Part shown: one piece after another, positions 21,445 through 61,200 of the stretch | Layout: each line of letters starts with the position of its first letter | How positions within the stretch are numbered: the first letter of the stretch is position 1 | DNA from: Candidatus Latescibacterota bacterium | GTDB taxonomy: Bacteria; Latescibacterota; UBA2968; GCA-2709665 | NCBI GenBank assembly: GCA_965219995.1 | Contig: CBDCOX010000002.1 | Coordinates: 608,001-672,000 of the forward strand | Direction: 5' to 3' | DNA length: 64,000 nt | Notes under the pieces: generated by a model | Told to the model about the DNA's origin: nothing | Database searches by the model: none | The model's input: the letters and a program-made list of their open reading frames with translations, nothing else | Position numbers and translations under genes: made by a program

Positions 21445-21477
21445 GTCCAGTGGGTTTTGTTGTACAGTCATTCTAGG

Positions 21478-21880
21478 CGACGTCAAAAAGCACCTATCGA
21501 AACGTGGTCATTGAGCTTGTCGAAATGCCCGTATTCCGGAATTCCGTCGACACACACGCCGTCTCGTCATGCCCTTCTGGCCGCAAACGTGCCGCCTTCC
21601 AGGCTCGCGATACGTACCAATCACGCAGCCATCAACCGATGCCGCAGTAGATCCTTCGTCGGCCGGCCTGCCAATAATTCTCTGGCAGGCCGGCTTCCTC
21701 AGGATGACAGTTTTGGCAAACGTGTGACTGAACCGTCTCGCTTTATGGATATTGCAAAACCTGTCATTCTGAGCGCAGCGAAGAATCTCCCGTCTTCTCA
21801 ATCGTCCCGGACACAGCAACGCGGGAAACACATTGGCGCGGACACATCACCGGTTTGACGGCCTCCTCATGATGGCAGTC
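21478..21880. repeat. Composite REP/MITE-like element, copy 1
   Basis: Modules GGTCATTGAGCTTGTCGAAATGCCC, CCTCAGGATGACAG and TGTCATTCTGAGCGCAGCGAAGAATCTCCCGTCTTC; colinear with the reverse complement of 56254-56628. Confidence 0.75.
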
Positions 21881-23136: not shown

Positions 23137-23499
23137 GGAGACGTTAGACGTAAGAGGGGAGAGGAAATGAGTGCCCTATGGTTTTTCTGGTCGTTACGAT
23201 AGCGGTAAATTAGCAGGCACGGTTTATGTGACAAACATTGCTGTAAATGTCTTCATCTACCCTCTACCCTCTACGTCTCACCGGTTTTATTGCCCCGTCC
23301 AGTTTCATTTTGTGCTGGAGGCATAAAAGTAGAACCAATCGGGCAAGGACGTCATCTAACGTCTTGCGTCTCACGTCTCACCGGTTTTATTGCCCCGTCC
23401 AGTTTCAATTTGTGCTGGAGCCATAAAGGAAAAACCAAACGGGCAAGGACGTCATCTACCGTCTACCCTCTTACGTCTAACCGCTTTTATCTCCCGTCC
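23137..23499. repeat. 100-bp tandem repeat (about 2.5 copies) with heptamer blocks and an upstream inverted heptamer block
   Basis: TCATCTA starts recur at 23253, 23352 and 23452; GTTAGACGTAAGAGGG near 23142 is the reverse complement of 23466-23481. Confidence 0.85.
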
Positions 23500-26699: not shown

Positions 26700-26723
26700 G
26701 CGTGATTTGGCGAACTCCCACCG

Positions 26724-26779
26724 GCTGAGACAGAGCCCAAGCAGCAATTCATACTCATGTGCGGTCAATTCCACGCGGC
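26724..26779 (-). pseudogene. Remnant of a hybrid kinase winged-helix domain
   Basis: 48/56 nt identical to 36609-36664; translates RVELTAHEYELLLGLCLS versus RVDLTAHEYELLRELCAS. Confidence 0.8.
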
Positions 26780-26930
26780 TGCGTGACCTCGCCTCTATGT
26801 AACACCCCTGACGTGAAGTCATCTCAATGAACCTCCGTTAGTACACCGTCGCGTTTTGGTCAGAGGCTGACGCACCCTTCCTGCGCAGGTCTGTAGAACG
26901 ACCTCGCCGGGAATTTTTATTGTTTGACCG

Positions 26931-26999
26931 AAAAATCACGATAAAGTCACTATATTATGGTCCGGTAGTCACTAAAAAGACATTTCAATGTTGTATATT
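26931..26999 (+). promoter_or_regulatory. TCAC-box promoter A, upstream of the FN3 giant protein
   Basis: TCAC at 26936, 26947 and 26969; GTATATT at 26993; same spacing as copies B and C. Confidence 0.7.
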
Positions 27000-27066
27000 C
27001 TCATAATAATTATACACCAAATGCGGCTCAAGGGAAACCGGAGACCATCTCGACGGAAGGGATCTT

Positions 27067-30000
27067 GTGTCTACTGATCATCGCAGACGATTCAGGGCGT
27101 GTTATTCCACCTGCAGGTTGTTGTGCAGCGTCGCGTACCGCGGTGTCGTGCGACCCGGCAGATGGATGTTCGTTCCGATGGGCTGGTTGTTTCTTGCCAC
27201 GTCGGTATACGCACAGGCCGGCAGTGGCCCGACCAACCTGAGGGTTTCGCTGGTTGGGCAGAACAGGTTGGAACTGACGTGGGACGCGCCGGCAGTGGAT
27301 GTGGCGAGTGTGAGCCATTACAACATCCGGTACAATGAACAGACCGGAGATTTGCGGGCATGGGGAAACGGCACCTATGGCGCCCTGGGCACTGCGACCC
27401 GCGCGGAGGTGGTATTGGGCAACCGGTCGAGGGCACGGTATTATACGTATCGAATGCATGCCGTGCGCAATGGCGTGGAGAGCGAATGGTCGAACAGCGT
27501 TACGTATGATGCGGACGGGGATACGGTGGTGGAGCTGCCCGTGGCGCCCGGCAGGTTGACGGCCCTTCCGCGAGACGGTGAGGTCGGATTGTCGTGGGAC
27601 GATCCGTCTGACGCCACGATCGTCGTCTACCAGTTACGCTTCACCCCCGGCGGCGTGTCTGCCCCACCGGATTGGACGCACGTCGTGTGGAGCGATATAG
27701 CCGGCAGTGACGCGGTTACGACCGTTCACGCCGTTGCGGAGCTGACCGACGGAACCGAGTATACGTTCGAGGTGCGCGCCAGGAATGCCGCCGGCGTGGG
27801 CGATTCGAGCGTGGTGACGGCCACGCCGGGTCTGCCTTCGCCGCCCGTCAATCTGTCCGCAACTCCCGGCGACGCATCGGTGCGGTTGACGTGGGACAAT
27901 CCGGGCGACGTTACGATCACGGGATATCAGGTCAGGTACAGCGATGCGACGGGTCTCGTACAGGACTGGACGGATATCAGTCTGAGCGATCAATACACGA
28001 CGGGTCACGAGGTGACGGGCCTGACGAACTGGACGGAATATACGTTCGAGTTACGGGCGGTGAACGGTGCGGGTCCCGGTGGTTCGTCGCACGTGGTAGA
28101 GACGCCCGGTTTGCCTCCCGGCGCGCCGTCGGGCCTGACGTGGACGCCCGGCGACGCGTCGGTGAATCTGTCGTGGGACGATCCTGCTGACGACTCGATC
28201 GAGAAATATCAGCTCAAGTACGGCGATGCGACGGGGCTGATACAGGACTGGACGGATATCAGTTTGAGCGATCAATACACGACGGATCACGAGGTGACGG
28301 GTCTGACGAACGGGACGGAGTATACCGTCGAGGTTCGTGCGGTCAACGCGGCCGGCGACGGCCAATCGTCGAGCGTGACCGCGATGCCCGGCCCGCCGCT
28401 GGCGCCGGCCAACCTGACGTCGTCGGTAGGCGGATCGTGGGTGATGCTGACGTGGGACGATCCGATGAACCCGAGTATTACCGGCTATGAAGTACGCCAT
28501 GGTGACGGGCACGAGTGGGAGCAGGACTGGATGGAGATCGTCTTGAGCGATGCGAACACGACGGAACATACCGTCGGAGACCTGGAACTCGAGCGGGAAT
28601 ACGTCTTCCAGGTGCGCGCGGTAAACGCTGCCGGCGCGGGTGAGGCGTCCGAGGTGACGGGAAAGCCTCAGGTTCCGCCGTCGGCGCCGTCGGGCCTGAC
28701 CGCGATTTCCGGCGACGGTTTCGTGACGCTGTCGTGGGACGATCCGGCCTATCCCGGCCTGATCGGGTATCAGGTGCGTTACGTGGAAGGCACGATGCCG
28801 CTTCCGGAAACGTGGGAAGACATCGAGGGCAGTCACGCGAGTACGACGTCGCACACGGTCGGGAATCTGACGAACGGCAGGAGCTACAGGTTCGAGGTGC
28901 GCGGGGTTAACGAGGCGGGGCCCGGGGAATCGGCCGGCGTTACGGGCAGACCCGGTGGCCCGCAGGCGCCCGCAGGCCTTTCTGCATCGGCGGGCGAGGC
29001 GGCGGTGACGCTGTCGTGGGAAGATCCCGACGATGGGACGATCACCGTCTATGAGGTGCGATACGATGAGCGCGCTTCGGGGCTGCCGGGAGTATGGGAA
29101 GGCATCTCGCACAGCGACAGCAGTACGACCCGTCACGAGGTGACGGGCCTGACGAACGGCACGAGGTACACGTTCGAGGTGCGGGCGGTCAATGCCGTGG
29201 GTCCGGGGGCGTCGTCCGGCCTGACGGCTGCCCCCGGCGCGCCGGGGGCCCCGGAGGGCCTTGGCTGGTCGCAAGCCCACGGGTTGGTGACGCTGACGTG
29301 GGACGATCCTGACAACGCCGCGGTCGCCGGTTATCAGATCCGGTATCGGGAGGGCGCGACGGGTAATCCGAGCTGGACGGATATCAGAGGGAGCAACGCG
29401 AACACGACCCGCCACGAGGTGTCAGGGTTGACAAACGTCACGTCGTATACCTTCGAGCTGCGCGCGTTCAGCGATGCCGGTTTCGGTCCGACGGCCAGCG
29501 TGATGCCGATGACGCCGAAGACGCCTGCCGGCCTGCGGGCGACGGCGGGGGTGAACGAGGTGACGTTGACGTGGACGGATGCCGATGACGCGTCGATATC
29601 GGGATATGAGATCCGATACGGCGACGGCGTGACGTGGGACCCGGACTGGACGGAGATCGATCCGAGCAACGCGAACACGACCCGCCACGAGGTGACGGGG
29701 CTGACGAACGGGGAGGCATACGCGTTTGAGTTGCGCGCGCTCAACTCCGCCGGACCCGGCCCGGCGGCGAGTGCTGCGGCCACGCCGATGCCTGCGGCGC
29801 CTGCGAACCTGGCGGCGGAGGCGGGCGTCAATCAGGTGACACTGACGTGGAGCGACCCGGGAGACGCGGCCGTCACCGTGTACCAGCTCATCTACTATAG
29901 CGGCAGCCGCCCTTCGCAACCGGTTTGGAATGACCTTTCCGGAACGGTCAGCCACGCGGTCATGGGCCTGAAGAACGGGACGGAGTATACGTTCGAATTG

Positions 30001-33000
30001 CGCGCGAAAGCGACGGCCACCCCCGGCGATTCGTCGGTGGCGATGGCCGCGCCAAAACCTGCGGCGCCTGCGAATCTGGAAGCGGCGGCGGGCGTCAATC
30101 AGGTAACGCTGGCGTGGGACGACCCCGGCGACGCCGAAATCACGATGTATCAGATCCGGTATGCGGAAACGAATGCTTCGCTGCCGGCGTGGAGCGATGT
30201 ACCGGGCAGCCGCGCCGGCACGGCGGACTACACGGTGACGGGCCTGAAAAACGGGACGGAATATACGTTCGAGCTGCGCGCGAAAGCGACGGCCACCCCC
30301 GGTGACTCGTCGGTGGCGACGGGCACGCCCGTGCCTGACGCGCCAGCGAATCTGCAGGCGGCGGCGGGCGTCAATCAGGTGACGCTGGCATGGACCGACC
30401 CGGGGGACGCCGAGATCACCATCTACCAGCTCAAGTATGGTCACGGGACGACCGTCGATCTGGACTGGAGCGATATTGTAGGGACTGGCGCAACCACGAC
30501 GCAGACCACGGTGACGGGACTGACGAACGGGACGGTGTATACGTTCGAATTGCGGGCGAAAGCAACGGCCACCACCGGCGATTCGGCGGTGGCGATGGCC
30601 GCGCCGAAACCCGCGGCGCCTGCCAACCTGAATGCGACGGGCGGTGACGGGAAGGTCACGCTGACGTGGGACGATCCGCAGGATGCGGCGATCACGAAGT
30701 ATCAGATCCGGTATGCGGAAACGAACGCGTCGCTGCCGGCGTGGAGCGATATATCGGAAAGCGGCGCGGCCACAACGACCGAGCACGTGATGAACCTGAC
30801 GAACGATACGGAATATACCTTCGAATTGCGCGCGAAGGCGACGGACACCCCCGGCGAATCGTCCGTCGTGAATGGGACGCCGCGGTCGTGTCCGACGTTG
30901 ACAATTGCATCGATTGCAGACGTGGCGAAGGCCGTGGGATCGTCAATCTCGATCACGGCGACTGCTACGGGGGGATGCGGCACGAAGACATTCTCGAAGA
31001 AGCCGGACGGCAATACGCCGTCGTGGATCAGCGTCACCTCCGGCGGCAGCATCACGGGCACGGTACCGAGTTCGGCTGCCTGCAATACCCACAACGTAAC
31101 GGTAAGGGTCACCGACGAGAGAGGAACGACCGACGAGGAATCGTTCAGGATCACCGTGGGGGCCGCTTCGAGACTGGCCATCAGATCGATAGCAGACGTG
31201 ACGAAGGCGGTGAGATCGTCGATCTCGATCACGGCCACCACGTCGGGGGGATGCGGTACGAAGACGTTTTCGAAGAAGCCGGACGGCAATACGCCGTCGT
31301 GGATCAGCGTCACCTCCGGCGGCAGCATCACGGGCACGGTACCGAGCGCGGCTGCCTGCAATACGCACAGCGTAACGGTCCAGGTCACGGATGGAAGAGG
31401 AACGACCGACGAGGAGTCGTTCAAGATCACCGTTCCTGGTGAGGCGCTGACGATTTCGTGTCCGACGGACCAGACCGCGACGAAGGGCACGCCTATCTCC
31501 GCGGTTAGGCCGACCGTCGGCGGAGGATGCCCTGATTATGAGTATTCGATGACGGGAGCGCCGTCGGGAGTCTCGATCAACTCATCGAACGGGAACATTA
31601 GCGGGACGCCCACGGAGACAGGCACATTTAGTTTGACGGTGGCGGTAGAAGATGAGGAAGGTACGACGGATAGTTGTTCGTTTACGATGACCGTCAATGC
31701 ACCTTCGCTGACGATTTCGTGTCCGGCGGATCAGACGGCGACGAAGTGCACGGCCATCACCGAGGTCACGGCGACCGTCGGTGGAGGATGCCCTGACTAT
31801 ACGTTTTCGATGACGGGAGCGCCGGCTGGTATGGAAATCGACGAAGGCACGGGAGAGATCAGCGGCAAACCCACGGAAACGGGTACGTTCAACGCTAACG
31901 TGACCGTAACCGATGCCGAGGAAAACACGGCATCGTGTAATTTCGCGATCACGGTCTCGTGTCCGACGATCACGGTGGGAGGTTTGTCGGATGTGATAGG
32001 AGGTCTGCCGCACGTGGTGGTGGAGGTAAACGAGGAGATGCCCACGATGGCGGCCACGGCATCGGGCGGTACCGCGCCGTATACGTTTGGGATATCCGGC
32101 CAGCCGGGGAACGTGACGACTAACCCAACAAGCGGGGTCATCAGTGGCAACGTCGGTGAAATACCCGGCAGATACACCGTGACTGTGACGGCGACGAGCG
32201 CGTGCGGCTGCAAGGGCACGGGCACATTCACGATCACGGTCTCGTGTCCGACGATCACGGTGGGAGGGCTGTCGGACGTGGTGGTGGAAGTAAACGAGAA
32301 GATGCCCACGATGACGGCCACGGCATCGGGTGGTGCGTCGCCGTATGCTTTTGCAATATCCGGCGAGCCCGGGGACGTGACGATTAGCGAAACAAGCGGG
32401 GAAATAGAGGGCAACGTCGGCCTCCGTGCCGACACATACCCGGTGACGGTGACGGCGACGGACCGCTTCGGTTGTGAAAGTACCGGCACCTTCGATATCG
32501 AAGTCGTCGATTACGACACGCTGGAGATCGACGACATCGGCGACGTGGATGCAGACGTCAACAAAGCTATTTCTTCGATAACGCCATCTGTCTCCGGAGG
32601 CAAGACTCCGTACACGTTCTCGAGCTCCGGCAAACCCGCGGGCATCACGTCCAGCACGTCGACCGGTGTGATAAGCGGCGCGCCAACCGCGCTGGGCACG
32701 TTCAACATCACGGTGACCGTCAGTGACGACCGCGGAGAAACGGATGAAACCGACTTTACCATGTACGTCAGCCGGTCGCTGTCTGTCGCTTCCGTTTCGG
32801 ACGTGGTGGTGACGTGGTATCTTGACATGGACCCGATCCAGGTGTCGGCATCCGGCGGCAGGTCGCCGTACACTTTTTCTCTTGAAAGCCCGCCCGCCGG
32901 CATTTCCATTAATCAGTCGTCCGGCGTCATCAGCGGCACGCCAACGCAGTTGGGCAGCGCATTGGTAACTGTCGTGGTACGAGATCAGGGCAGACGCCAG

Positions 33001-52500: not shown

Positions 52501-54169
52501 ATCCAACGGAACGGCGGCAGCAGGCGCAGACTATGTGAGGACGCGTGGCGCCCTTCGCTTCGACCCGCTGGAGACGCGGCTGACGATCAATGTCCCGATC
52601 GTCGACGACAGCGTCGAGGAAGACACCGAGAATTTCAGGGTGATCCTGTCCAGGTCCGTGAACGCGACGCTTAACGGTGGCGAGGCGGCGGCAACCGGCA
52701 CGATCGACGACAACGATGCCGCGATACGGGCGCTGGAGATATTCCTTTCGAGCGTCGGACGCATGGTGGCTTCGGATGCCGTCGAGGTGATCAGCCGCCG
52801 TTTCGATTCGAACAGTGACGGCCGTCCGTCGCTCACGCTCGGCGGGCAGACATTGATCATTGACGGCGACCGGGAATCGGGCCACCGGTTGTACTCGACA
52901 ATTCCCGCGCGGGAAATCGCCTGGATCGAGGCGCCGGGGCAACGTATCCCGACGGACGCTCAGACGGCCCAGAGCCGGTCTCATCTGCGCCAGACCAGTG
53001 TTTGGGACGTGCTGTCCCGCAGCGACATCTACGTGCCCTACCGCAGAAGAGGAGGCGAGTCGGGATGGACCCTTTGGGGCCGTGGCGCCATCAGTGGATT
53101 CCACGGCGCGCCCGGAACCGCTCGGCGGATGGATGCTGACGCCATCAGCAGTTACGTCGGTATCGACTACAACATCCGCTCAAGGGCGCTGCTGGGCCTG
53201 GCTGCAACGCGAAGCGCAGGAGATTTGAATTACACCCATTCCGCTTCGGGCAGGACACTCGTGCCGATCGATTTTTCGATCACAACGCTGCTGCCTTACC
53301 TCCTTCTGAAACCGCATCCGCGGTTTGGATTGTGGGGGATGTTCGGTACGGGCCGGGGCAGGGTCGAGCTTGTTGACGCCGACGGCGGTCTGGATACGGA
53401 TCTGGCGTTACGGATGGGCGCCGGCGGCGGCCGTCAACATCTGACCACGCTGGATCGGGTCCAATTCGCACTTAAGGGGGACGCCTTTTACGTGGAAACC
53501 ACGTCTGACGGAAACGCACGATTACCGGAGGTGCGTGAGCAGGCAAAGCGGGTGCGCCTGCTCATTGAGGGCCGTCACACCCATAGAAGTGGACGCAAGA
53601 GCCGGTTTAGCCAGAACGTGGAAATCGGCGGAAGGTGGGACAGCGGGCGCGTTGAGAATGGCAGGGGCGTTGACGTGGGCGGCGGCATCGAATACACCCA
53701 TGTCGATCACGGCGTCAGCCTTTCCGCACGCGGACGCTATCTCGTCTTGCACCAGCAGCCGGACTACGAGGAGTGGGGGGCGAGTCTGTTTCTGCGAATC
53801 AGTCCCGGTTATGGCGAACGGGGAATGCTGGTAGACGTCACGCCGGCCTGGGGCGCACCCGCAGATTCGGACGGAACGCTGTGGCTGGACGCGCCGTTCC
53901 TGGCATTCAATCCCGCGGAAACGCCAGGAGTTCGACCGGATCGGATGAAGGTCGATATCGGGTATCGACTCCTGACGGCTGACGGAAAAGGGACGGTAAC
54001 TCCGTATGGCGGTTGGACGGCAGGGCCGCGCGGCCGCGACAGATATCGCATCGGCGGCCGTCTCCGGCTGGGTAGGGCTGCAGGCCTGGACGTGTGGGGC
54101 ACACGGCAGGCGCAGGGACAGGATGCTGCGATTTACAGCATCAGAATAACGGGACGCATAGTCTGGTAG
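43571..54169 (+). CDS. Giant (about 3530 aa) acidic Calx-beta-like repeat surface protein with a C-terminal autotransporter-like beta-barrel
   Basis: Long signal region ending AVA-Q; many YTVKL.T.PTA.VTVT..LTFT...WN..QTVTV.A.DD.D repeats; canonical Calx-beta VNYATSNGTAAAGADY..E.TENF.V.LS; amphipathic strands ending in terminal W. Confidence 0.85.
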   Translation: MTLKYHNTARPVNAKTGSTCGGPSHARYATGSDRCIAGCRRRRPWLGLVSRSRNSIFRTALSVITLLILGAADRAVAQSQDLVLSESSLVVEENADNSYTVKLATAPTADVTVTISGTSGTDLSVDNTSLTFTSTTWNAEQTVTVTAAGDTDATDDTATLTHTASGGDYASVTKNLPVAVEDVTTVTMNISGLLSSISEAGDVYASLELSASLNLALSDDVTLTVSAAPADANTTADHYTLSPDPPEITIASGATQTGDVVNFVPVDDHKTGHKNVTLTFTVNNDRVTVSPGTTYNVFIRNDDLAQITLELQPAPIFENGRAGRVRARLLRSRPQTEQVTLNIAATASSPTVASDFTLSGQALTFPPGSFMSEGLVEITANDDTDMDDEIVIVSATVEAGQGVIEPDPLNLQIVDDDESGPITLSLRLSPDRLVESGGSTISTVTAEASRPLSQAATITVSASPDSAVATTTTDDFTLSLNRELLIGVGETASRGAVTITAVDNALYEGTHKSVLVAGTVTGNTGVAAPPERVLTILENDSKALVQMIATPGEIDEDGGVSTISAVSFVPMPETVTFDVRVFGSTLTLSDNVQLTMPAGQTMSTGTVTVTAGDVAGTNNTSASISRTNLSSSSFTVRTTSVIILDDDATASMLWMLLSPNRLVEGQGQTSVVSAYLTQPLAENVSVTVAFDEDNTTAFADEYTLSTDRTLTISAGDTTSTGTVTLSTVDNDYYSHRFGSKVAYTYEVTGPDGLNAAKIQNDWNIVEDESPPEVTLVLTPDAIGEDGGMSTVTAELNSAVRSDVTVTVSTEASVDFTQTGSTLTIAQGSKTSTGTVTLTAIDNDVDALDRLVLVSGALTIADELSFGTIAFPYSRQLTITDDDDANLVLSSQTLPVNEGSSNTFRARLDTEPTANVTVNIGLPPGTDVSVNNPVLTFTPTTWNTEQTVTVLAAHDDDAVDDTAILTLEASGGGYGSISKDLDVTVTDDDEAAIVLSPAPLPVDENDDNSYTVKLDTEPTATVTVTIGGHSGTDLSLDKTSLTFTTTTWNTEQTVTVTAGDDDDGVDDDETLTHVASGGDYASVTKDLDVTVTDDDEAAIVIDPAPLPVDENDDNAYTVKLDTEPTATVTVTIGGHSGTDLSLDKTSLTFTTTTWNTEQTVTVTAGDDDDGVDDDETLTHTASGGDYGSVTKDLPVTVTDDDEAAIVIDPAPLPVDENDDNAYTVKLDTEPTATVTVTIGGTADTDLTTDPPILTFTTGNWSTEQTVTVTAGEDDDAVDDSATLTHTASGGDYGSVTKDLRVMVTDDDEPAIVLSPVPLSVDENDDNAYTVKLDTKPTATVTVTIGGHSGTDLSLDKTSLTFTTTTWNTEQTVTVSAGDDDDGVDDSETLTHTASGGDYVSVTKDLEVAVTDDDDPALVITPPSLGVLENGDRPYTVSLATEPTATVTVTIGGHSGTDLSLDKTSLTFTTTTWNTEQTVTVSAADDTDAVNDPETLTHTASGGDYGTVSKDLPVTVTDNDEAGLSLSSPALEVGENDDETYTVALATEPTATVTVTIGGHSGTDLSLDKSSLTFTATSWNTEQTVTVSAGDDDDAVNDGETLTHTASGGDYGSVSKDLPVTVADDDEAAIVLSPTPLTVNENDDNTYTVRLATEPTATVTVTIGGHSGTDLLLDKTSLTFTTGNWSTEQTVMVSAGDDDDAVNDGEDLTHTASGGDYGSVTKDLSVTVTDDDEAAIVLAPASLPLDENGDNTYTVKLATEPTATVTVTIGLPPGTDVSLDRTSLTFTTGNWNAEQTVRVSAGDDEDAVDDSETLTHAASGGDYVSETKDLPVTVTDDDEAAIVLAPASLPLDENDDATYTVVLDTRPISTVTVTIGGTAGTDLTTDLPNLTFTTGNWNVEQTVTVSAGDDDDAVNDNETLTHVASGGDYGSVTKDLPVTVTDDDEAGLVLAPETLGVRENGSAPYRVRLATRPTADVSVAISGYMGTDLTLDETGLTFTTATWNVEQTVTVTAGDDVDAVSEDATISHTASGGDYGSVTADLSVVVTDDDAPALVLSPPSLTLMEGENVTYTVSLATRPTAGVTVTIGGTADTDLLLDKTLLTFSTTDWNIDQTVSVSAEADDDSGSDTATLTHTAFGGDYGSVTRDLRVLVTDDDEADLVISPRSLTVTEGSSASYRVRLSTLPGGAVTVTIVVTSDADVSLSTTTLRFTPENWNVDQSVRVSAAHDADSSDDSARLSHSAAGAAYGSVRKDLPVRVADDDEVGLVMSPASLSFGEGTSTAYTVKLFSQPGANVIVTISGGSEADLRLGRNTLAFNNSNWNTAQTVTVTAGHDDDAVNDTGVLAHMASGGNYGSVRENLPVTVIDDDSGGGGRGVAGDIVLAPASLRVDEGTHEDYTIALNAPPGSDVTVTIGGTTGTDISLDKESLTFGTASWNTPQTVRVSAAHDDDADDDSATLSHAASGGGYDTVGRNLAVTVTDDDTRDEQAGAEVTVSFARTNYTAEEGGNPAQVTVRVVLNSDPEREVTVPLTVDLNGGATPDDFEGVPEAITFGVGQMAKSFNVIAVDDDVDDDGESLTIGFGSLPDRIVAGRPSSTEIHIVDNDDPMTVVSFARDSYTAREGSAPARVTVRVMLSGDPERRVTVPISVNLLGGATLEDFEGVPASVTFGRGEMEKFFDVIAVDDDLDDDDESIAVGFGTLPDRVIPGNPAEAVIHIEDDDDPVVNVSFDRSSYDAAEGGNPALVAVLLGADPEREVTIPVVVTHGGGATAADYDGVPPNVVFNSGETRKQFAIAAVDDDVDDDGESVTLGFGTLPERVERGRPMNAAVTIVDNDERGVTVSTRALAVPEGQAASYTVVIRSEPTSQVNVDVTVTANPDVSVDPLQMTFSTENWDVPQEVVVLAAHDDDAIVDRATLNHATSGGDYGAVAVPSLAVTVIEDDVPVVAIGNERVTEHAGDMVFTVSLDVQSSEEVIVNYATSNGTAAAGADYVRTRGALRFDPLETRLTINVPIVDDSVEEDTENFRVILSRSVNATLNGGEAAATGTIDDNDAAIRALEIFLSSVGRMVASDAVEVISRRFDSNSDGRPSLTLGGQTLIIDGDRESGHRLYSTIPAREIAWIEAPGQRIPTDAQTAQSRSHLRQTSVWDVLSRSDIYVPYRRRGGESGWTLWGRGAISGFHGAPGTARRMDADAISSYVGIDYNIRSRALLGLAATRSAGDLNYTHSASGRTLVPIDFSITTLLPYLLLKPHPRFGLWGMFGTGRGRVELVDADGGLDTDLALRMGAGGGRQHLTTLDRVQFALKGDAFYVETTSDGNARLPEVREQAKRVRLLIEGRHTHRSGRKSRFSQNVEIGGRWDSGRVENGRGVDVGGGIEYTHVDHGVSLSARGRYLVLHQQPDYEEWGASLFLRISPGYGERGMLVDVTPAWGAPADSDGTLWLDAPFLAFNPAETPGVRPDRMKVDIGYRLLTADGKGTVTPYGGWTAGPRGRDRYRIGGRLRLGRAAGLDVWGTRQAQGQDAAIYSIRITGRIVW
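46225..51010 (+). repeat. Intragenic tandem array of about 15 x 318-bp (106-aa) units
   Basis: GAGGCGGCGATCGTG recurs at 46535, 46853 and 47171; adjacent units nearly identical. Confidence 0.9.
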
Positions 54170-54946: not shown

Positions 54947-56095
54947 CTATTGCCCGTTGTTGAGGACAACTTTGACGAATTCGCCGAAATCGGTCGTGTC
55001 GAAGGTCCTGAAGGAGGTGAGCATGGAAGGCGTCCACTCGTCGTGCCAGATCCAGGCGGTCCATCCGATGCTGCGGGTCTGGCAGAAGTCGATCAGGGGC
55101 CGGCCGTAGTCTTCCCTGATTCTTGCCGGATTTTCCGAGTGCCCGTACCCCCATTCGCCCAGGAAGACGGCTTCGGTCTTGTCCAGATCCGAAAGAACGC
55201 TCTTCCAGGCTTCGCCCTTCCAGGGATAGGGATGGGTTTCATACACCACGTTGGGCCGATCGACCGGGTTGTCGAGCGCGCCGCTCAGGTCGTACCCCCA
55301 GTCGACGCCGGAAACCAGCACGAGCGCCCGGGGATCCACGCCGTGGATGACGTCGACGAGAGACTCGGCCACGGGCCGCCAGTCGTCCCACGCAATAAAC
55401 GAGGGTTCGTTGAACGTGCCGTAGATGACGTGGGGCTGATCTCTGTATCTTCGAACGATATCGTCGAGTGCCTCTTTTGCCAGTGAAAGGTCGGGGTTGT
55501 AGGGATTGCCGCTCCACGGATGCAGGTACCCCCACTCGGGGCGTTCCGTCTGGCCGGTCAGCGGGTTCCCGTGCGCGTGCCAGCCGAGAAAGATGTACAC
55601 GCCGCGCCGTTGGCCCCACGCGACGATCGGATCCACGAATGCGGCCAGGTAGTCCCGATACCGGTCCCAGAGGTCGGGGTGAATGGGGACCCGGACGATA
55701 TCCACGTTCCACTCGTGGGCCAGAAGGTCCAGCGCGTCCTGTCCCCGGCGGGTGGCGGCGTGCAGAAAGTACGGGTCGATCACGGCCACGCCGCGAAGGA
55801 CGACGTCCACGCGCTGACCGAAGGTGTCCGCGAAGGCCAGAAAGTCGGCAAAATCGACGATCCCGCTGTTGTCCAGGTCGAATTCGACCGCTGGCGAACC
55901 GAAAGCGTCCGCAAACATCAAAAAGTCCCGGAGATCCACCTGGCCGCCGCCGTCGAAGTCCGCGGCGGCAGTATTCACGCTGACGATTCTGTGCCCTTCA
56001 ACCCGCAGTCTCGAAAGGTTGTCGACGCCATCCGCCGGTGCAGGAAAGACCGGCAGGACGAGGATGAGAATAACAATAGCGAGGCTTCTGGACAT
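54947..56095 (-). CDS. Secreted glycoside hydrolase family 5 with an internal dockerin/EF-hand-like insertion
   Basis: Signal peptide MSRSLAIVILILVLPVFPAPA; VRVP, WH, FNEP (acid/base), H.YP, GEWG (nucleophile), GWTAW; start could be 56113. Confidence 0.8.
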   Translation of the reverse strand: MSRSLAIVILILVLPVFPAPADGVDNLSRLRVEGHRIVSVNTAAADFDGGGQVDLRDFLMFADAFGSPAVEFDLDNSGIVDFADFLAFADTFGQRVDVVLRGVAVIDPYFLHAATRRGQDALDLLAHEWNVDIVRVPIHPDLWDRYRDYLAAFVDPIVAWGQRRGVYIFLGWHAHGNPLTGQTERPEWGYLHPWSGNPYNPDLSLAKEALDDIVRRYRDQPHVIYGTFNEPSFIAWDDWRPVAESLVDVIHGVDPRALVLVSGVDWGYDLSGALDNPVDRPNVVYETHPYPWKGEAWKSVLSDLDKTEAVFLGEWGYGHSENPARIREDYGRPLIDFCQTRSIGWTAWIWHDEWTPSMLTSFRTFDTTDFGEFVKVVLNNGQ

Positions 56096-56180
56096 CCGGA
56101 CGTTCATGGACATTCCGGGATCGATTGCGCAATGCGTCTTTTTCGTTTCTTCCGTATACGCCATGCTCAGGAAACGGATG

Positions 56181-56628
56181 TGAGGGTGGGGCAGACATTC
56201 CTGTCTGCCTTCCTCGACATCGGTCAAAGTCTCCGGTCGGCCAATTGCAAACACTGTCATCCTGAGGAGGCCGGCAAACCGGTGATGGGTCCGCGCACAA
56301 GCTCGTCTGCGAAGGGCATCTGCCCCGCGTCCAGTCGAGAAGACGGGAGATTCTTCGCTCCGCTCAGAATGACATGCTTTGCAATAGCCGTCAGCGAGAT
56401 GTTTCGGTGACACCTTCGCCAAACCTGTCATCCTGAGGAGGCCGGCAAACCGGTGATGTGCCCGCGCCCCAAGCCGCTCCCTGAGCTTGTCGAAGGGTCG
56501 GCGAAGGGCTCAGGAGCTTCCTTAATTCGGGCATTTCGACATTTCGACAAGCTCAATGCAGGCATGCTTACTTCGGCAAGCTCAGCACAGGCAATGACCA
56601 CGTTTCGATAGGGGTAATTAGACGTCGC
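56181..56628. repeat. Composite REP/MITE-like element, copy 2
   Basis: TGAGGGTGGGGCAGACATTCCTGTCTGCC; two copies of CTGTCATCCTGAGGAGGCCGGCAAACCGGTGATG; GAGATTCTTCGCTCCGCTCAGAATGACA; TTCGACAAGCTCA modules. Confidence 0.8.
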
Positions 56629-56740
56629 GCTGAATTACAGGCGGCCGGGTATTAACCCGATGAGATCCTTTCAATGAAAGATAGAAATAATGCCCGTTGC
56701 TCGCAAGGCAGAAGGGAATGTCGACAATGGTTGGCGCATC

Positions 56741-61006: not shown

Positions 61007-61079
61007 GGGAACAAACAGGAAGCACGCAGTCAACCTTTGCAAGATGCATTCCGTATCGCTCCGGTGCCATCGCGTATTG

Positions 61080-61200
61080 CAACGTGGTCATTGAGCTTGT
61101 CGAAATGCCCGTGTCTCACGATACGTTCAGCGCATAGCCGGGAGCCCGTCGCCGACCCTTCGACAGGCTCAGGGAGCGACTTCGGGCTCAGGCACATAGC
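61080..61200. repeat. Composite REP/MITE-like element, partial copy 3, inside the ABC operon
   Basis: AACGTGGTCATTGAGCTTGTCGAAATGCCCGT (matches about 21500-21532) and GCCGACCCTTCGACAGGCTCAGGGAGCG (inverse of about 56475-56502). Confidence 0.75.

Follow-up and report, generated by a model that had tools for sequence, protein, structure and literature searches.

A candidate one-chain regulator and its repeated promoter box beside giant exported-protein genes in Latescibacterota and other bacterial phyla

Results

The genome of a Candidatus Latescibacterota bacterium (assembly GCA_965219995.1, here G000; 5.44 Mb, two contigs) contains a locus at which a one-chain two-component regulator, a repeated promoter box and genes for giant exported proteins ("payloads") lie together. 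We analyzed this locus in a stretch of 64,000 nucleotides (G000:C2:608001-672000), referred to as the window; positions are those of the window unless contig C2 is named. The window holds one intact GAF-PAS-HisKA-HATPase-REC-wHTH protein (wHTH: winged helix-turn-helix), a paralog split by an insertion sequence (IS), two regulator remnants and three homologous promoters, A, B and C (Table 1). None of these promoters is faced by the intact regulator gene, which lies downstream of the split paralog and is convergent with the FN3 and WD40 payload genes. An earlier interpretation made from the sequence alone (the sequence-only reading) had described the same divergent layout three times. Pfam searches and DNA alignments verified its coordinates, its contents and the homology of the promoters: region C (42280-42714) and region B (43160-43590) are 73% identical over 437 nt (E 1e-63), A and B 76% over 89 nt (E 3e-7), and A and C 72% over 89 nt (E 4e-4). 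Remnant A is indeed wHTH DNA, being 86% identical (E 1e-11) to positions 36608-36664 of the intact gene, but its 19 codons stem from the middle of the domain and not from a gene start; the surrounding DNA is also matched in the congeners G002 and G005. Remnant B is 73% identical to region C.

In the intact regulator, Pfam recognizes GAF, PAS, HisKA, HATPase_c, Response_reg and Trans_reg_C domains (the last with E 7e-23). The protein has no membrane segment, its N-terminus consisting of the GAF and PAS domains and its maximum 19-residue hydropathy being 1.16. Homologs were taken from the best 80 of 450 matches, leaving 76 or 77 loci per analysis. Invariant in all 76 aligned full-length members are His327, Asn444, Gly474, Gly505, Gly507, Asp618 and Lys667, and the G1 Asp is retained in 72. 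The REC pocket is equally well preserved, with D618, S645 and K667 in 76/76 and D574 and D575 in 75/76 members. Full-length members form at least about 74 clusters at 50% identity, counted among the best 150 entries; all 8000 scored candidates passed E 1e-50, other hybrid kinases included.

The best-matching named records of the regulator are Candidatus Latescibacterota metagenome-assembled genomes, one of them labelled Gemmatimonadota. Within the phylum the distribution is patchy: the family occurs in 32 of 151 genomes from two families, in 14/14 congeners and in none of the 19 genomes of the sister family. The regulator tree mixes phyla, and approximately unbiased (AU) tests reject a single clade for Latescibacterota (p 0.015) and for Dehalococcoidia (p 4e-7), based on 38 picked sequences and on groups named after a first tree had been seen. 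The simplest reading of these trees would be repeated transfer of the family between phyla, for which we claim no direction; old paralogy is the alternative source of the mixing. Only one regulator is intact in the window, as the sequence-only reading stated, but the genome has two further intact paralogs, each with its own variant boxes, so that the idea of one sensor left in charge is not supported. We also considered whether the single regulator of the congener G010 is a chimera of two paralogs and rejected this, since most of the segments compared place it nearer to the second paralog.

Each promoter of the window carries four TCAC-type half-sites with an 11-bp period, the last one 10 bp before a -10 hexamer. 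The unit has its four half-sites in two pairs, which are separated by a skipped turn (offsets 0, 11, 32-34 and 43-45). Among the 77 regions upstream of homologs, TCAC dyads with 11-bp spacing were found in 31 (1.0 in dinucleotide shuffles) and with 33-bp spacing in 24 (0.6 in shuffles), and they are confined to the payload strand. An array at p<=0.01 is present in 57 of these regions, from Chloroflexota, Latescibacterota and others, as measured by a mononucleotide shuffle on a set that was not dereplicated. A second set, made up of 60 dereplicated loci from metagenomes, was retrieved once the matrix existed and was scored against block shuffles; it gave arrays at p<=0.01 in 30 loci and at p<=0.05 in 41, and equally high scores on the reverse strand in only 8/60. 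For this set 20 of 80 loci had been dropped because of short upstream DNA or redundancy, and at least two loci duplicate the first set. Most arrays are some 60-140 bp away from the start of the regulator gene. Half-sites and -10 hexamer are conserved across phyla and keep a fixed spacing, unlike the intervening DNA. A TAnnnT hexamer follows the last half-site after 9-11 bp in 22 of 33 promoters, or 17/28 when the five of this genome are excluded (null for 33 promoters: mean 3.1, maximum 9 of 2000). The arrays thus have the geometry of a pho-box activator site, and this spacing of half-sites and -10 hexamer points to activation of the payload gene. By these sequence criteria, the unit of regulator and box recurs in several unrelated bacterial phyla.

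When a matrix built from non-Latescibacterota sites was run over both strands of contig C2, box C, a site at C2:4633821, box B and box A took ranks 1 to 4. Ranks 5-9 are TCAG/TCAT variants in front of four further open reading frames (ORFs; 926-2876 aa), and four of these variants are near the paralog at 4.61 Mb. Six genome positions score >30, compared with none in five block-shuffled genomes, whose peaks reached 22-28. The box pattern was found in 12 of 41 genomes, all from the regulator-bearing genus, and in 0/19 of the sister family, which lacks the regulator; the 12 are kin and not independent, and the pattern was derived from the window sites. In 11 of 27 pattern matches there is no regulator within 1.5 kb upstream. 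A variant with 10-bp spacing lies 1 kb from the third paralog. Six matches with 9-bp spacing were rejected as boxes, five of them being copies of one dispersed repeat (Table 1), and a 46-bp motif fit was discarded in favor of a shared half-site model since it had collapsed onto one redundant Dehalococcoidia clade. In the congeners G008 and G013 a box (loci L144 and L146) lies between a hybrid regulator gene and a divergent gene for a protein of 254-256 aa, receiver-like by its sequence. The box of locus L158 has no regulator nearby and stands upstream of one gene, whose product presumably resembles a secretion membrane-fusion protein.

The payloads of the window are structurally distinct: no similarity between the 2064-aa and the 3541-aa protein was detected by blastp (E 1e-3). 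The former combines fn3 (E 2e-146), He_PIG (5e-74) and Dockerin_1 (3.5e-8) matches. Its dockerin is 51% identical to the tail of the 877-aa WD40 protein, and because a gap of only 80 bp separates the two genes, they are probably co-transcribed. Dockerin-like calcium-loop tags are thus carried by the FN3 and WD40 proteins and, in addition, by the GH5 protein (33261, 35975 and 54947-56431). The 3541-aa protein matches Calx-beta (E 4e-43) and probably ends in an autotransporter barrel, as suggested by Atlas features of 0.96 and by the Autotransporter family on 26/30 matches; Pfam gave no Autotransporter match on the whole protein, and a single-sequence AlphaFold model of the C-terminus was unusable (pLDDT 33). 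Within this protein, about 15 tandem repeats of 318 bp (106 aa) extend over 46197-51014; they are 61-93% alike, and the most similar copies are central.

A divergent ORF of >=900 aa within 2.5 kb is present in 42 of the 76 close homologs (Dehalococcoidia 30/45, Latescibacterota 6/13, Caldilineaceae 4/14, Acidobacteriota 2/2, others 0/2), compared with 2.5-4.6% in controls (103/2255 genome genes, 2/80 downstream genes); these ORFs were set by a longest-first rule and not by a gene caller. From the 42 we picked 24 payloads by hand, 19 of which contain fn3, cadherin, Calx-beta, SWM or LRR domains; the other five are a TonB receptor, an SH3 protein, an SLT-TPR protein and two proteins without matches. 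The proposed module with a swapped payload is also supported by other phyla, where homologs lie back-to-back with giant FN3, cadherin, Calx-beta and LRR genes. Autotransporter-like ORFs (2876 and 4426 aa) also lie next to the two other intact paralogs of the genome.

Payload exchange is also directly visible at the locus itself. In the eight congeners mapped, the island directly follows the gamma-glutamyltransferase gene. Box A stands upstream of FN3 and WD40 genes in the window and in G002, and upstream of unrelated autotransporter-like proteins of 2.0-2.5 kaa in G004, G005 and G009. At the A site, G014 has an autotransporter-like payload with no box scoring >15, and a payload is missing from G006 and G011. 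Most congeners encode a 940-aa protein behind box C; in G009, an 85% ortholog of the 3541-aa protein lies directly behind this box. Since boxes A and C were kept in front of differing proteins, payloads have been swapped behind a retained box. Five congeners (G002, G005, G006, G009, G010) have a third regulator-box pair, which is absent from the window. Duplicated units are present, as the sequence-only reading had it, but the module is a family-wide and not just a local arrangement.

Paralog C consists of a PAS-HisKA and a HATPase-REC-wHTH half and has no GAF domain (Pfam). It is interrupted within HisKA by an IS that has a DDE_Tnp_1_4 transposase, terminal inverted repeats and five copies in the genome, another one being 100% identical, and which we take to be of IS1380 type. 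DNA run X6, which may stem from the source sample, gave contigs that cover both IS junctions without differences. The end of the IS supplies an ATG in frame with the 3' half, 8 nt before the transposase stop, so that a REC-wHTH product of paralog C is possible. In 7/8 congeners paralog C is an intact PAS-REC-wHTH frame of 392-463 aa, and all seven frames share one in-frame deletion of the kinase core. On average, dN/dS among them is 0.22 in REC-wHTH and 0.49 in PAS; the kinase-less form is under purifying selection in the seven congeners. The claim that paralog C represents the loss of a redundant regulator is therefore not upheld, all the more as one half is still open here. The window copy represents the older form, its H-box being intact and its G1 motif decayed; an ortholog of its HATPase was not found in the congeners (best 53% among 14 genomes). 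The REC-wHTH part of the window copy is 82-86% identical to the seven congeners with pairwise dN/dS of 0.15-0.22, values that reflect the shared past and thus are no proof of selection after the IS insertion. Paralog C would probably serve as a kinase-dead partner that is phosphorylated by the intact regulator encoded downstream.

Four RNA runs shared only 0.11-0.12 of the words with the sequence and gave no evidence of transcription. The contigs of run X2 were short and of low depth: the listed pieces on the regulator were about 88-97% identical, strong cover was restricted to a related IS, and no IS-skipping joint was among the 15 joints listed of 122. This cover is evidence of neither transcription nor habitat.

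Discussion

We think it likely that the one-chain regulator is an activator that switches on divergent genes for exported or surface proteins through the repeated box. A cytoplasmic cue would act on the GAF/PAS part of the 814-aa protein. Judged by the invariant residues, the kinase would then phosphorylate His327 and the phosphate would pass to Asp618, whereupon the winged-helix domains could bind the two tandem pairs of 11-bp direct repeats. With the last half-site in the -35 position, as the pho-box geometry suggests, binding would recruit sigma70 polymerase to the divergent gene. In this model, regulator and box form a portable unit and the slot holds a series of these units: payloads are exchanged, regulators are duplicated or disappear, and the boxes stay and can be read in trans. 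The likeliest readers of boxes A, B and C2:4633821 are the intact regulator, the REC-wHTH part of paralog C, or both.

Several points weigh against this sequence-derived model. The 76 loci are rich in kin: 14 share one helix, and L017 and L020 are one locus. Wrong spacings also yielded 0-6 genome positions scoring >25, and the non-Latescibacterota matrix took its site positions from a joint fit, which is a small leak. Promoters that are homologous by descent would share the repeat anyway. A recognition code linking helix and half-site is suggestive, with counts of 27/32 compared with 1/14, but the covariation is weak, as these counts come down to 3-4 independent pairs (sign test p=1), and L063 bears a helix of the TCAC class and has no array. 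Some boxes precede genes other than adhesin genes (L144, L146, L158). In a distant metagenome set, a divergent ORF of >=900 aa lies beside only 5/32 loci, a recognizable LRR, cadherin-like, RCC1 or Ig protein is encoded upstream in 6/32, and many neighbors are housekeeping genes, some others having lipoprotein-like starts. The neighborhood association proposed by the sequence-only reading is thus strong for close homologs but weak in distant subfamilies, and a dedication to adhesins was too strong a claim. The box is conserved more than the link to giant genes.

The boxes could instead be mere passengers, i.e. intergenic DNA that travels with the regulator in a decaying array, with A and B outside the control of the intact regulator. 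Two remnants, an IS-split gene and a stub within 28 kb fit such a decay, as do the loss of both window regulators and both payloads in the closest congener, G010, and the lack of an array at the intact regulator itself (score -9). We nevertheless regard this as unlikely: conservation across phyla is limited to half-sites and -10 hexamer at fixed spacing, boxes remain where no regulator is adjacent, and both payload genes are still intact frames. A global regulator of the OmpR/PhoB family, e.g. PhoB, might also read the boxes, the hybrid protein being a mere neighbor; the shared geometry is in favor of this, as is TCAC itself, which we assume to resemble a pho-box half-site. The top sites, however, are in surface-protein islands and beside hybrid genes and not before recognizable phosphate genes, the pattern is restricted to the regulator-bearing genus, and half-sites vary between regulator clades (a descriptive result only), which makes a global reader very improbable. 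The least probable of these alternatives is that the boxes repress or autoregulate the regulator gene without activating the payload. Their distance from the regulator start would allow an overlap with its divergent promoter, but the repeats are strand-polar, the -10 hexamer is on the payload side at activator distance, and boxes A and C2:4633821 have no neighboring regulator.

Like the hybrid two-component systems (HTCS) of Bacteroides, the activator proposed here unites kinase, receiver and DNA-binding domain in one chain, with many paralogs per genome (passages of PMC11253607); according to the same passages, tethering insulates paralogs and may allow quick spread by duplication or lateral transfer. 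HTCS are membrane sensors that serve polysaccharide loci, whereas the regulator described here is a cytoplasmic GAF-PAS protein that adjoins genes of exported repeat proteins (one TonB receptor and 19 repeat proteins among 24 payloads). The output domain of HTCS is of AraC type; here it is an OmpR-type winged helix, and no AraC match was found among 10 Pfam families.

A pho box lies 10 bp upstream of the -10 element in the part of PMC1906773 considered and has 11-nt units in that of PMC4415409. Activators of the PhoB/OmpR type share the REC-wHTH output and the direct repeats of 11 bp, the last of which ends some 10 bp upstream of the -10 hexamer. Different are the fused kinase, the half-site core TCAC with its variants and the fixed array of 2+gap+2. 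PhoB/OmpR activators stand alone with a separate kinase, a form that the kinase-less paralog of seven congeners does fit. The closest solved REC-wHTH structure is MtrA (E 9e-39, PDB), and among the best 25 NCBIfam models listed none reaches its cut-off. An origin of the REC-wHTH part from KdpE is not supported, KdpE being sixth of 16 PDB matches and absent from those 25 models. The only PDB matches of the GAF domain are mycobacterial DosS/DosT (DevS) GAF-A domains (5 sequences, E 8e-12 to 6e-7). Heme sensing as in DosS is not supported either: at the position of the heme-ligating residue, presumably His149 of DosS, the regulator has Arg, and in this loosely aligned column R is found in 37/76 and H in 10/76 members. 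The partner of DosS is a separate NarL-type protein. The system would thus work in the manner of a hybrid two-component system whose promoter is of the pho-box type, and is not a member of the Bacteroides HTCS, DosS or KdpE groups.

Sponge-associated lineages, Latescibacterota and Chloroflexota among them, are enriched in FN3, cadherin, LRR and WD40 proteins, which are laterally transferred (main texts of PMC8163846, PMC12993501 and PMC3909097); Latescibacterota, Chloroflexota and Acidobacteriota, which bear the regulator family, are among the typical sponge lineages (main text of PMC8163846). These main texts tie no regulator or DNA site to such genes: "histidine kinase" is absent from those of PMC8163846 and PMC12993501 and appears in PMC3909097 only for microcompartments. 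Searches of the literature, covering main texts and few subscription journals, found no published account of the regulator family or its box. Eukaryote-like and adhesion proteins mark the genomes of sponge symbionts, and the papers checked name no regulator for them; our analysis supplies a candidate transcription factor and DNA site, from which target genes become predictable in uncultured bacteria of several phyla. It adds a cross-phylum test and a prediction of targets over the whole genome, and describes the -10 geometry, the exchange of payloads and the kinase-less partner, for a large family of one-chain two-component proteins with OmpR-type output that is built differently from the Bacteroides system. 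Since the DNA-binding part is both small and soluble, no culture is needed to test the claim, and a ligand of the GAF/PAS part, if found, would name the cue for surface display. The locus may form a host-colonization regulon, as the sequence-only reading supposed. A laterally shared switch, by which co-living symbionts of several phyla display FN3, cadherin, Calx-beta and LRR proteins on the same host-derived cue, is a possible but doubtful extension; a helix-to-half-site code would then insulate paralogs, and kinase-less partners would extend one kinase to more promoters.

Further features of the window and the genome

The features of the locus are listed in Table 1. Between the stub behind box C and remnant B, the remnant of a propeller-type N-terminus (42905-43030, +) is 55% identical over 42 aa to the start of a 1076-aa gene at C2:4215910, the tail of which presumably resembles a sigma54-activator HTH.

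Table 1. Features of the regulator-box locus (window positions) and of a dispersed repeat
Feature	Position	Strand	Basis or remark
Remnant A, 19 codons out of the middle of the wHTH domain	26723..26779	-	translated wHTH peptide
Box array A, half-sites at offsets 0, 11, 33, 44	26932..26986	+	genome-scan rank 4
-10-like hexamer TATATT, last half-site of array A 10 bp before	26994..26999	+	
Payload A1, 2064-aa FN3 / He_PIG (Ig) repeat protein, C-terminal dockerin	27067..33261	+	Pfam
Payload A2, 877-aa WD40 protein, dockerin-like tail	33342..35975	+	Pfam WD40; missing from the sequence-only reading
Intact one-chain regulator GAF-PAS-HisKA-HATPase-REC-wHTH, 814 aa	36366..38810	-	Pfam
Paralog C 3' half, degenerate HATPase and intact REC-wHTH, open frame	38970..40286	-	Pfam
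IS with terminal inverted repeats	40254..41815	-	DDE_Tnp_1_4 transposase at 40276-41655
Paralog C 5' half, PAS-HisKA, without GAF	41748..42461	-	Pfam
Box array C	42578..42632	+	top genome-scan site; -10-like hexamer 42640-42645
37-aa stub, resembles start of Calx-beta protein	42695..42808	+	
Remnant B, decayed start of C-type regulator	43150..43343	-	start codon lost, two stops
Box array B	43453..43507	+	genome-scan rank 3; -10-like hexamer 43515-43520
Payload B, 3541-aa Calx-beta repeat protein	43544..54169	+	probable C-terminal autotransporter barrel
Dispersed repeat, ~60 bp, internal CACAAAA units	G000:C2:1436114, 3457603, 3702948, 4038945, 4991220		

Elsewhere in the genome, a second island (G000:C2:4608824-4636501) encodes an intact paralog of the regulator, a 2876-aa protein that is paralogous to payload B (61-65% identical) and other exported proteins; it also holds five boxes and the trio of 926-, 415- and 252-aa genes that is found behind box C in congeners. 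In a third island (G000:C2:4265734-4344211), the intact paralog is convergent with autotransporter-like genes of 4426 and 3332 aa; many of the proteins encoded there have dockerin-like tails, and the boxes are weaker or 10-bp-spaced.

The island of the window and its genes are flanked by short palindromic repeats in intergenic DNA (21467-21879, 33327-33417, 36071-36285, 56179-56638 and 61075-61197), which fall into families and are possible substrates for recombination. A tandem duplication with a period of 99 bp lies at 23253-23499, between a glycosyltransferase-4 and an M20 peptidase gene.

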